Below are positions 3,001 through 7,298 of a stretch of DNA of 7,298 nucleotides, piece after piece (within the stretch, counting starts at the first letter, position 1; each line of letters opens with the position of its first letter). Position numbers: made by a program. Source of the DNA: a virus (Duplodnaviria > Heunggongvirae > Uroviricota > Caudoviricetes); IMG/VR virus record IMGVR_UViG_2534681994_000011; one strand, written 5' to 3'.

Positions 3001-6000
3001 AAAGATGGTCGCAGAATTGAATATACGGCGGCTTCTCTGGATGAGCTTAACCGGGCGATCAATGATGCGGAGTCGGTACTGGGGACAACCCGGCGTCGCC
3101 GTCGTCCGCTGGGAGTGAGGTTATGAAACGAACGCCTGTCCTGATTGATGTGAACGGCGTTCCGCTTCGTGAGAGTCTCAGCTACAACGGGGGCGGTGCA
3201 GGATTTGGCGGGCAAATGGCGGAGTGGTTGCCACCGGCGCAGAGTGCCGATGCGGCCCTGCTGCCCGCGTTGCGTCTGGGGAATGCCCGGGCAGATGATC
3301 TGGTGCGCAATAACGGAATAGCGGCCAATGCGGTGGCACTGCATAAGGATCACATTGTCGGGCATATGTTTCTTATCAGCTACCGTCCGAACTGGCGCTG
3401 GCTGGGGATGCGGGAGACCGCAGCAAAAAGCTTTGTCGATGAGGTGGAGGCGGCCTGGTCGGAATACGCCGAAGGGATGTCTGGCGAGATCGACGTGGAA
3501 GGAAAACGCACGTTCACGGAATTTATCCGTGAAGGTGTGGGCGTTCATGCGTTTAACGGCGAAATCTTTGTGCAGCCGGTCTGGGATACGGAAACCACGC
3601 AGTTATTCCGTACGCGTTTTAAAGCCGTGAGTCCGAAACGGGTGGACACGCCAGGACACGGTATGGGGAACCGTTTTCTGCGGGCCGGGGTGGAGGTCGA
3701 TCGATATGGCCGTGCCGTTGCGTACCATATCTGTGAGGATGATTTTCCTCGCTCCGGGAGTGGACGATGGGAACGGATCCCGCGTGAACTTCCCACCGGG
3801 CGTCCGGCCATGCTGCATATTTTCGAGCCGGTGGAGGACGGGCAGACCCGTGGGGCCAACCAGTTTTACAGCGTCATGGAACGGCTGAAGATGCTCGATT
3901 CCCTGCAGGCAACACAGCTTCAGTCGGCCATTGTGAAAGCCATGTATGCAGCGACGATTGAAAGTGACCTTGATACCGAAAAGGCCTTTGAATATATCGC
4001 CGGTGCGCCGCAGGGGCAGAAGGATAATCCGCTTATTAATATTCTGGAGAAGTTCTCCAGCTGGTATGACACGAATAACGTGACGCTGGGTGGTGTCAAA
4101 ATTCCGCACCTTTTCCCCGGGGATGATCTGAAACTACAGACTGCGCAGGATTCAGACAATGGATTTTCGGCGCTTGAACAGGCGCTGCTGCGGTATATCG
4201 CCGCCGGTCTTGGCGTTTCCTACGAACAGTTGTCCCGTGATTACTCGAAGGTCAGTTATTCAAGTGCCAGGGCCTCTGCCAATGAGTCGTGGCGCTATTT
4301 TATGGGGCGGCGAAAATTTATTGCGGCCCGGCTGGCCACGCAGATGTTTTCCTACTGGCTGGAAGAGGCACTTCTTCGGGGGATTATCCGTCCGCCACGG
4401 GCGCGTTTTGATTTTTATCAGGCGCGATCAGCCTGGTCACGGGCAGAGTGGATTGGTGCCGGAAGAATGGCCATTGACGGGCTCAAGGAGGTTCAGGAAT
4501 CGGTGATGCGCATTGAGGCCGGACTGAGCACGTATGAGAAAGAGCCGGCGCTGATGGGCGAGGATTATCAGGACATTTTCCGCCAGCAGGTCAGGGAATC
4601 TGCAGAGCGGCAAAAAGCCGGACTCTCACGTCCGGTGTGGATAGCGCAGGCGTATCAGCAGCAGATAGCGGAGAGTCGCAGGCCGGAAGAGGAGACAACA
4701 CCCCGTGAGACGTAATCTTTCACACATTATTGCCGCAGCATTCAATGAACCGCTGCTTCTGGAGCCCGCCTATGCGCGGGTTTTCTTTTGCGCGCTCGGG
4801 CGCGAGATGGGGGCAGCAAGTCTTTCGGTACCACAGCAGCAGGTACAGCTTGATGCTCCCGGAATGCTGGCTGAAACGGACGAGTACATGGCCGGAGGTA
4901 AACGACCGGCCCGTGTTTACCGGGTGGTGAACGGTATTGCTGTACTGCCGGTGACCGGCACGCTGGTGCACCGGCTGGGGGGTATGCGGCCATTTTCCGG
5001 AATGACAGGCTATGACGGCATTGTCGCCTGTCTTCAGCAGGCAATGGCGGATAGCCAGGTGCGGGGCGTACTGCTGGACATTGACAGTCCGGGCGGGCAG
5101 GCCGCCGGCGCGTTTGACTGCGCTGACATGATTTACCGCCTCCGTCAGCAGAAGCCGGTCTGGGCACTGTGCAATGACACGGCCTGTTCTGCAGCCATGC
5201 TGCTGGCGTCGGCCTGCTCCCGACGGCTGGTTACCCAGACATCCCGTATCGGCTCCATTGGCGTGATGATGAGCCATGTCAGCTATGCCGGTCATCTGGC
5301 GCAGGCCGGTGTGGATATCACGCTGATTTACTCAGGGGCGCACAAGGTGGATGGCAATCAGTTTGAAGCCTTACCGGCAGAGGTTCGCCAGAACATGCAG
5401 CAGCGCATTGATGCGGCGCGCCGGATGTTTGCCGAAAAAGTGGCCATGTTTACCGGTCTGTCTGTTGATGCCGTCACGGGAACAGAGGCCGCCGTTTTTG
5501 AAGGTCAGTCCGGCATTGATGCCGGGCTGGCGGATGAATTAGTCAATGCGTCGGATGCCATCAGTGTGATGGCCACGGCGCTGAACAGTAATGTCAGAGG
5601 AGGCACTATGCCGCAATTAACTGCAACGGAAGCCGCCGCGCAGGAGAACCAGCGAGTGATGGGGATCCTGACATGCCAGGAAGCGAAAGGACGTGAACAG
5701 CTTGCCACGATGCTGGCAGGACAACAGGGCATGAGCGTTGAACAGGCCCGGGCGATTCTGGCCGCGGCGGCACCGCAGCAGCCGGTGGCATCCACGCAGA
5801 GTGAAGCCGATCGCATTATGGCGTGTGAAGAAGCGAACGGTCGTGAACAACTGGCGGCAACGCTGGCGGCGATGCCGGAGATGACGGTGGAAAAAGCCCG
5901 CCCGATCCTGGCTGCTTCACCGCAGGCGGATGCCGGACCCTCACTCCGTGATCAGATCATGGCACTGGATGAGGCAAAAGGGGCTGAGGCGCAGGCTGAA

Positions 6001-7298
6001 CAGCTGGCTGCCTGCCCGGGAATGACTGTGGAGAGCGCCCGGGCTGTGCTGGCTGCGGGATCAGGTAAGGCAGAACCGGTCTCTGCATCCACAACCGCCC
6101 TGTTTGAACGCATCATGGCGAACCATTCACCGGCTGCGGTACAGGGTGGCGTGCCACAGACGTCAGCAGACGGTGATGCGGACGTGAAAATGCTCATGGC
6201 CATGCCATGAAGTCAGTGCTGACCATCAACAGGAGGTTTTTACAATATGGTAACGAAAAACATCACTGAACAGCGTGCGGAAGTACGTATTTTTGCCGGT
6301 AATGATCCGGCTCATACCGCCACAGGCAGCAGCGGGATTTCCTCGGCAACACCGGCACTGACGCCCCTGATGCTGGATGAAGCCAGCGGGAAACTGGTGG
6401 TCTGGGACGGACAGAAAGCCGGTAGTGCAGTTGGCATACTGGTACTGCCGCTTGAAGGCACAGAGACGGTACTGACCTATTACAAGTCGGGGACCTTTGC
6501 GACGGAGGCAATCCGCTGGCCTGAAAGTGTGGATGAACACAAAAAGGCAAATGCCTTTGCCGGCAGTGCCCTGAGTCACGCGGCGCTGCCGTAACACGTT
6601 ATCAGGCCACCGCGGTGGCCTGACTGATTTCTGAATGAAAGGAACTGATTTATGGGATTGTTTACGACCCGCCAGTTACTCGGTTATACCGAACAAAAAG
6701 TGAAATTTCGTGCGCTGTTTCTGGAGCTGTTTTTCCGCCGTACGGTGAATTTCCATACCGAAGAGGTGATGCTGGACAAAATTACCGGAAAAACGCCGGT
6801 GGCGGCCTATGTCTCCCCGGTTGTTGAAGGAAAAGTGCTGCGTCATCGCGGTGGTGAAACCCGCGTGTTACGTCCGGGCTACGTCAAGCCGAAACACGAA
6901 TTCCCCTGGAGCCGGTAAAAGGAGCCGGTACCACCCTGTGGGTTTATAACGGTCAGGGTGACGCCTATGCAAACCCGTTGTCAGACGATGACTGGCAGCG
7001 ACTGGCTAAGGTGAAGGATCTGACGCCGGGCGAGATGACGGCAGAATCCTACGATGATAACTACCTGGATGATGAAGACGCGGACTGGACCGCGACCGGG
7101 CAGGGGCAGAAATCTGCAGGTGATACCAGTTTTACGCTGGCCTGGAAACCGGGAGAGGAAGGCCAGAAAGGGCTTATAGGCTGGTTTGAAAGCGGCGATG
7201 TCCGGGCCTATAAAATCCGTTTTCCGAATGGCACGGTGGATGTGTTTCGTGGCTGGGTCAGCAGTATCGGTAAGGCCGTGACGGCGAAAGAAGTGATC

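Follow-up and report, generated by a model that had tools for sequence, protein, structure and literature searches.

The closest described systems to the one considered here are the head genes of the lambdoid phages lambda and 21, in which an S49 family prohead protease and a nested, in-frame scaffold protein share their C-terminal part. The herpesvirus UL26/UL26.5 pair is alike in that a nested in-frame scaffold shares the C-terminus of the protease, which takes both proteins into the procapsid, and differs in that the protease is unrelated in fold and sequence and there are no tandem modules. The scaffolds of phage P22 (gp8) and staphylococcal phage 80-alpha carry a small helical C-terminal unit on a flexible scaffold, with a C-terminal helix-turn-helix that binds the N-arm of the capsid protein (the coat-binding motif of gp8 is described in PMC11922011), and tandem three-helix binding domains, those of staphylococcal protein A and the albumin-binding GA modules, are also among the nearest known systems. 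Here, we analyze gene C in a 7,298-nucleotide (nt) stretch of phage DNA (hereafter, the window; IMG/VR record IMGVR_UViG_2534681994_000011), where a reading made from the sequence alone, without database searches, had noticed a module of ~50 amino acids (aa) repeated in tandem. We identify the region as the C-terminal part of a head protease/scaffold gene pair of the phage 21 type, carried by a defective lambdoid prophage of Escherichia coli O157:H7. This identity, together with its anatomy (a phage 21-type gene 5/6 with the Tri boxes), is close to certain; combined with a capsid-binding mechanism for the modules, it forms a composite that we moderately favor as the best explanation of the region as a whole.

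A tblastn search of a phage collection with the C-terminal 206 aa of C matched 'Escherichia phage 21' (M81255, 'Bacteriophage 21 head gene operon'), and the annotated features under the match are 'head-tail preconnector gp5', 'gp6', 'Tri1 box', 'Tri box' and 'Tri3 box'. Gene C of the window and gene 5 of phage 21 are colinear, with 98.6% nucleotide identity, 491 of 501 aa identical and no indels. Phage 21 (M81255; complete genome, OL657228) has the same nested start, ribosome-binding site (RBS) and three repeats, with 10 aa differences in 501, whereas the prophage that carries the window copy is decayed (its terminase gene is frameshifted and its capsid gene truncated), and the tail reads FERIM where phage 21 has FEHFM. 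In M81255, the three Tri boxes are repeat_regions of gene 6 whose note reads 'function unknown; putative'; they map to window positions 5675-5778, 5815-5925 and 5956-6069, coinciding with the three modules. Because of this correspondence, the three repeats are evidently the Tri boxes already annotated for phage 21, so that the triplication was known and is rediscovered here. The Tri boxes were reportedly described by Smith & Feiss in Gene in 1993; the evidence used here is the GenBank annotation. A search of the literature on Nu3/gpNu3, S49 scaffold repeats and phage 21 head genes found nothing about Tri boxes or the module. Of 5,426 complete E. coli genomes, 1,864 have a full-length copy of the three-module scaffold gene. 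The features of the region are as follows.

4705-6210, + strand: gene C (phage 21 gene 5), an S49 prohead protease fused to a scaffold region, 501 aa.
5597-5603, + strand: RBS GAGGAGG, 4 nt upstream of the nested start codon, read from the sequence.
5608-6210, + strand: predicted nested in-frame scaffold gene (phage 21 gene 6, Nu3 analogue), mapped from M81255 and OL657228.
5617-5769, + strand: module 1 (Tri1), aa 305-355, the canonical copy with a long first helix, 81 bits.
5770-5796, + strand: flexible linker 1, APQQPVAST, with a predicted local distance difference test score (pLDDT) below 50 at aa 358-363.
5797-5919, + strand: module 2 (Tri2), aa 365-405, an extra copy without the 3-residue 'VMG' segment of helix 1, 60 bits.
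5920-5937, + strand: short linker 2, PQADAG, non-helical in the model.
5938-6063, + strand: module 3 (Tri3), aa 412-453, the most diverged copy, 48 bits.
6064-6207, + strand: conserved tail of ~48 aa, aa 454-501, with the motif ALFERIMANHSPAAV at nt 6097-6141, ending ...LMAMP.

The protease part of C is readily recognized. Peptidase_S49 (PF01343) is detected by Pfam at aa 146-293 (E = 2.8e-35, 122 bits vs a cut-off of 24.9 bits), the protein matches PHROG 53 'head maturation protease' (E = 1e-227), and its RefSeq product name is 'S49 family peptidase'. The gene starts with a GTG codon, overlaps the end of the portal gene and is placed between the portal and the decoration/major capsid genes, as in lambda C/Nu3-type systems. 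Lambda gpC/gpNu3 shares this gene order, the protease domain (61% identity over aa 1-300) and the presence of module and tail at the C-terminus, and the catalytic-type Ser in 'CSA' and Lys in 'HKVDG' are aligned, Ser162 and Lys214 of C with Ser166 and Lys218 of the lambda-type protein. No Pfam family covers aa 300-501. The modules lie here, beyond the S49 domain, that is, in the scaffold (Nu3-like) C-terminal part of the head protease to which the sequence-only reading had assigned them.

The nested gene begins with ATG at 5608, and its predicted product of 200 aa, which starts with MPQLTATEAAAQ..., has a net charge of -10 and comprises the three modules, the 48-aa tail and little else. An RBS is annotated at the equivalent position in both M81255 and OL657228, the latter record labels the product 'scaffolding protein', and many independent gene calls begin at this Met (for example, P0002, P0005 and P0023). 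A start within the protease domain, as in lambda, was considered at M231 (nt 5395) or M241 (nt 5425), neither of which has a convincing RBS; the start at 5608 is preferred because it is annotated in phage 21 and preceded by a strong RBS. Lambda-type HK629, Sano and phage 21 all have an annotated nested scaffold gene, and that of lambda likewise encodes ~200 aa, although the annotated Nu3 begins inside the protease domain, at aa 239, whereas the nested start in the window is located just past it. In lambda-type C (L002, 2986-4305), a Met at aa ~308 (…SGGRMTKETQ…) occupies the position that matches the start of phage 21 gene 6, and phi80-type phages annotate a 137-aa scaffold from the equivalent Met; the true scaffold start may differ among relatives.

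Motif starts are found at nt 5653 (aa 317), 5812 (aa 370) and 5953 (aa 417), with a further candidate at 6109 (aa 469). The three units align pairwise with local BLOSUM62 scores of 83-100, compared with a mean of 25 (standard deviation of 5) for shuffled sequences (z of 11-16), and the observed score is reached by none of the 2000 composition-preserving shuffles. When other proteins supply the profile, each through its first or only module, the three units as they occur in phage 21 score 81, 60 and 48 bits (E = 4e-26, 1e-19 and 1e-15, respectively). The three tandem copies reported by the sequence-only reading are thus confirmed at the positions it gave, and the internal repeats are significant on pairwise self-alignment; self-BLAST of C returns the identity match only, and the repeats emerged from pairwise alignment with shuffles. 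The region is Ala-rich, which might invite the view that the similarity is a chance product of Ala/Gln-rich low-complexity sequence, but with shuffles never matching the observed scores and a profile made from outside proteins giving E values of 1e-15 to 4e-26, this view is already refuted and its probability is negligible.

The module is ~45 aa long, with the consensus I(L/M)x(L/C)xEAKGRExLAxxLAxxPGMTVExAKxxLAAAP. The extra copies retain most of the near-invariant positions, the exception being module 3, in which the near-invariant Arg of 'KGRE' is replaced by Ala (KGAE). At the DNA level, the copies are only 58-66% identical, in line with the divergence noted earlier, and where two copies share a residue, its codon differs in more than half of the cases; therefore, the duplication is old, and it is the protein that has been conserved. 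The module is conserved under purifying selection. Those same figures count against a role of the repeats as DNA elements or as DNA-binding helix-hairpin-helix motifs, to which the GenBank name 'box', the pattern-matched CII sites in OL657228 and a weak match to Pfam PF00633 (aa 427-450, E = 0.093) might be thought to point. That match scores 13.1 bits vs a gathering threshold of 24 bits and occurs in one copy only, and the protein is acidic, so that this reading is disfavored and hardly credible. The two CII-binding-site pattern matches (ttgyN6ttgy) marked in OL657228 are on the minus strand (L005, 2524-2537 and 2758-2771), correspond to window positions ~5613-5626 and ~5847-5860 inside the scaffold gene, and are probably there by chance.

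The candidate at 6109 (RIMANHS), taken at first for a truncated fourth repeat, does not belong to the series. On its own it is not significant (z of -1.3 to 1.8 vs shuffles), the hhalign comparison of the tail profile with the module profile gives a probability of 0.3%, and the phage 21 equivalent reads FEHFMANHS, without 'RIM'. The tail carries a separate conserved motif, distinct from the module. In 52 single-copy relatives the tail is 36-67 aa long (median, 49.5), and in 7 multi-copy relatives, 45-48 aa; its motif, a-L/F-D/E-x-x-M...P-x-V, is also found in single-copy homologues, such as ALDRLMQGAP in lambda. Window C has no two-helix hairpin with a basic binding face at the extreme C-terminus, of the kind that P22-type scaffolds have.

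The lambda-type C protein of HK629 consists of 439 aa and contains a single module, ENSRIMGILNCEEAHGREEQARVLAETPGMTVKTARRILAAAP, which is exactly the peptide that the sequence-only reading gave for lambda, followed by the tail ...ALDRLMQGAP...LLNTPV. Window C is indeed the longer protein (501 aa vs 439 aa), but the net difference is 62 aa rather than the ~100 aa of expansion initially proposed. In lambda, one module follows a low-complexity spacer of ~55 aa, whereas window C has three modules after a spacer of 17 aa. A profile of 14 modules, compared with 1.84 billion cluster representatives at E<=1e-3, matched 977 of these. A single module is present in 136 of the 144 proteins examined among the best 150 matches. 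Those among them that exceed 380 aa (n = 57, up to 844 aa) have the module ending at a median of 49 aa from the C-terminus (range, 36-182), and the remaining ones, of ~40-350 aa, include nested scaffold ORFs (open reading frames) and fragments. Among these best matches, only the enterobacterial lambdoid clade has multi-copy proteins, bar three distant two-copy cases. The expectation that three copies would set this protein apart from its homologues therefore holds with respect to lambda and most of the family, but not with respect to phage 21 and Salmonella, where the same three copies are found. The module is thus a signature of the C-terminal extension that lambda-like S49 prohead proteases carry, normally present in one copy ~50 residues from the C-terminus. 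The only PHROG families matched by its profile are scaffold, capsid-assembly and head-protease families, plus several of unknown function. No significant match was found to any Pfam-A family or domain represented in the Protein Data Bank (PDB), the best profile match among PDB sequences being unrelated (E = 0.09).

In a neighbor-joining tree of the individual units, every first copy groups with the single modules of lambda and others, sharing the 3-residue segment 'VMG/IMG', and module 1 is accordingly orthologous to the single module of lambda Nu3. Copies 2 and 3 mostly group by position across the E. coli and Salmonella proteins and also in more distant relatives, with some exceptions among distant three-copy relatives; the second copies of the distant P0234 and P0235 fall elsewhere, and the extra copies of the four-module protein form a lineage-specific cluster. 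Judging from this topology, copy 1 is ancestral, and copies 2 and 3 derive from an old duplication; their positional grouping implies that the triplication predates the split of the E. coli and Salmonella phage lineages. With the synonymous sites scrambled as well, the age that had been supposed for the expansion stands.

Single-copy relatives have a median of 70 aa (range, 31-147) separating the module from the protease domain; in window C this spacer is 17 aa long, while the C-terminal extension, at 207 aa, falls within the lengths seen in multi-copy (157-210 aa) and single-copy (120-224 aa) relatives. Given the short spacer and the normal length of the extension, the extra modules take the place of a disordered spacer and the protein is not unusually long. 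This length balance, along with the natural alleles with 2 to 5 modules and the loss of the near-invariant Arg from module 3, agrees with the idea that the two extra copies mainly restore the length of the lost disordered linker, copy 1 alone being functional. However, the near-invariant residues, which a spacer would not need, have been kept despite the scrambling of synonymous sites, copies 2 and 3 are predicted to be folded, and all members of the clade in the phage collection have three copies, which makes this idea rather improbable. The retention of near-invariant positions and the predicted folding of each copy favor the earlier view that the expansion is probably functional.

The AlphaFold2 model of full-length C (118 aligned sequences; mean pLDDT, 85.6) contains a confidently predicted protease domain and three helical units set apart from one another, with ten-residue block means of 86-94 in the modules. 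Each modeled unit consists of a first helix, a short turn and two more helices, at aa 307-322, 331-339 and 345-354 in module 1 (pLDDT 87-94), 367-372, 381-389 and 395-404 in module 2 (about 90-94), and 414-419, 428-436 and 442-452 in module 3 (about 86-92). Modeled alone with 84 diverse sequences, module 1 has a pLDDT of 94.8 and a predicted template modeling (TM) score of 0.78, with helices at residues 5-20, 29-36 and 43-52 of the construct. The pLDDT drops below 50 before module 1 (299-305), between modules 1 and 2 (358-363) and after module 3 (455-461), the stretch between modules 2 and 3 is modeled as non-helical, and the tail is modeled poorly (38-64). The module is therefore predicted, with high confidence for the fold, to be a small three-helix unit, and the protein to present three separate beads on flexible linkers. 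A Foldseek comparison with viral models yielded no match at E<=0.001; the three best matches (E of 0.011-0.63, TM of 0.81-0.87) are S49 prohead proteases with the same unit, one each from Salmonella phage 37, from a Synechococcus phage and from an uncultured siphovirus, and add no functional clue.

The number of modules varies in nature, and all alleles with different copy numbers are in frame. Proteins with two modules (451/452 aa) are R1/R2 hybrids or lack R2; an allele with 2.5 modules (482 aa) is found on at least 1000 contigs; the three-module form of the window (501 aa) is also present in Salmonella, including Gifsy-1; four modules are present in a 551-aa protein and in P0028, a partial record of 346 aa; and five modules occur in one case of 657 aa. 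A homologue search with the C-terminal region alone returned mostly gene fragments and is informative for variants but unsuited to frequencies. All of the ~20 phage-collection records of the clade, a small and redundant sample, have the 618-nt three-module segment, whereas the alleles with 2 and 2.5 modules are found in bacterial assemblies only, which hints that the copy number matters.

Several variants deserve mention in their own right. The five-module E. coli protein (P0114) results from a tandem duplication of ~156 aa, from the C-terminus of the protease through part of Tri3, and could be genuine or an assembly artefact. Two other E. coli proteins, P0193 (721 aa) and P0197 (577 aa), which differ from each other, switch from C to unrelated sequence resembling tail fibres directly behind '...AVLAAGSG', where Tri3 ends, and the shared fusion point suggests a recurrent deletion or recombination breakpoint. 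In P0246 and P0355, distant two-module proteins, the last module is followed by the motif 'W(D)xxLxSRGM', once in P0246 and twice in P0355; these are an independent duplication in another lineage. The C protein of phage D2 (L001, 2986-4503), and likewise of 4A7 and Lambda_4C10, all viable, is chimeric, with the first ~110 aa of the lambda type and the rest, including the modules, of the 21 type; D and E of these phages are 99% 21-type.

As to what the module does, the capsid proteins of eight sampled phages provide some guidance. The five phages whose S49 protein has the module encode a capsid protein of the lambda-E type (PF03864), without a delta domain; the two whose S49 protein has no C-terminal extension encode an HK97-type capsid protein (PF05065) with ~135 residues N-terminal of the capsid domain; and the remaining one, a Felixounavirus, combines a different, module-free extension with a lambda-E type capsid protein. 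This distribution fits the extension being a scaffold for E-type shells. Further support for a scaffold role comes from the annotated nested scaffold genes and from a two-hybrid study in which lambda Nu3 is reported to bind E, C and itself (PMC3224144). In the mechanism we propose, the nested 200-aa acidic protein, with its three modules and tail, would be the assembly scaffold for the lambda-E-type capsid protein. Each module would bind the inner face of the shell (capsid protein E/gp7), the same shell-interior binding role that the C-terminal units of P22 gp8 and 80-alpha have, so that a molecule of the scaffold gp6 would be trivalent and bridge neighboring capsid subunits. On the full-length protein, the shared C-terminal region would take a few molecules of the gp5 protease into the procapsid. 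Once the shell is assembled, the protease would cleave the exposed linkers, with cuts predicted at aa 356-364, 406-411 and 454-461, and the resulting acidic fragments would exit before DNA packaging. Argued from analogy, a capsid-binding mechanism of the modules is tentative, with a probability somewhat short of even.

Several points weigh against it. The binding of module to capsid is deduced from position and from analogy with other scaffolds. The conserved EAKGRE turn and PGMT helix cap could be kept for folding alone, and the conserved tail, rather than the module, could bind the capsid. The Felixounavirus has an E-type capsid protein and an S49 extension without the module; therefore, the module is not obligatory for E-type shells. 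Furthermore, with natural in-frame alleles of 2, 2.5, 4 and 5 modules, the copy number may be tolerated, and module 3 lacks the near-invariant Arg.

Under a different assignment of roles, the modules would be self-association units, through which the scaffold forms a dimer or network, with the C-terminal tail binding the capsid protein. Small three-helix bundles often pair, and the tail is conserved in length and motif as much as the module. Lambda Nu3 interacts with itself in two-hybrid assays and is reported to dimerise (PMC3224144). In the AlphaFold2 model, however, the three units are apart, with low-confidence linkers between them, although a monomer model is blind to intermolecular contacts. 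On balance, we regard self-association as the primary role of the modules as unlikely.

The modules might, alternatively, bind the portal (gpB/gp4) or a chaperone, bringing scaffold and protease to the initiation complex. A lambda prohead contains ~200 scaffold copies, which suits a shell-wide partner better than the 12 portal subunits. In phage D2, the lambda-type patch comprises the N-terminal ~110 aa of C, beside the portal gene, and the modules go with the 21-type D and E, an observation of linkage only. The genetics of lambda speaks for the portal, in that Nu3 is required for the incorporation of B, and C-B and Nu3-B interactions are tabulated (PMC3224144); a portal or chaperone target is nevertheless very improbable.

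Returning to the shell as the partner of the modules, a stronger version of the capsid-binding proposal holds that the copy number of the module sets valency, that in the phage 21 clade a trivalent scaffold replaced a 'long spacer plus one binder', and that three copies are needed for viable heads. If three copies are required, propagated phages should keep three, and shortened alleles should accumulate only in decaying prophages. As it stands, we consider this version doubtful.

Records of phage 21 have documented the triplication for about thirty years, and about one third of complete E. coli genomes carry the same gene. Interest remains in that GenBank lists the Tri boxes with 'function unknown' and neither Pfam nor PDB contains the module. 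In the present framing, Tri is a widespread, predicted three-helix unit of S49 protease/scaffold proteins, as a rule single, with extra copies replacing a disordered spacer in this clade. The natural alleles with 2, 2.5, 3 and 4 copies, along with the lambda/21 hybrids, offer a ready system for studying scaffold valency in capsid assembly.

The rest of the window, to judge from the list of ORFs, is the left arm of a lambdoid prophage, with the following genes around gene C (4705-6210).

526-1035: Nu1-like gene (small terminase).
950-2936: terminase gene A (large subunit), split by a frameshift into ORFs 950-1291 and 1242-2936.
2920-3126: gene W.
3123-4715: portal gene B.
6247-6594: decoration gene.
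6652-6918: capsid gene E, truncated.

The entire window is 100% identical to E. coli O157:H7 chromosomes. Their annotation treats the prophage as decayed: the terminase gene is frameshifted (its RefSeq label in O157:H7 TW14359 is 'frameshifted'), and the capsid gene is truncated and joined with a tail gene. E ends after 88 codons, at 6918, in agreement with the truncation noted earlier, and the tail gene starts at ~6900 (region 6652-7298). The deletion took the remainder of E, FI, FII, Z, U and the beginning of V; therefore, the prophage is unable to build heads. In most of the matching O157 genomes, the small terminase gene is split by an ISEc8 (IS66-family) element (L003, 6526-9481); the window does not have this insertion in 526-1035, and its match to such genomes falls into two pieces over 9.7 kb.

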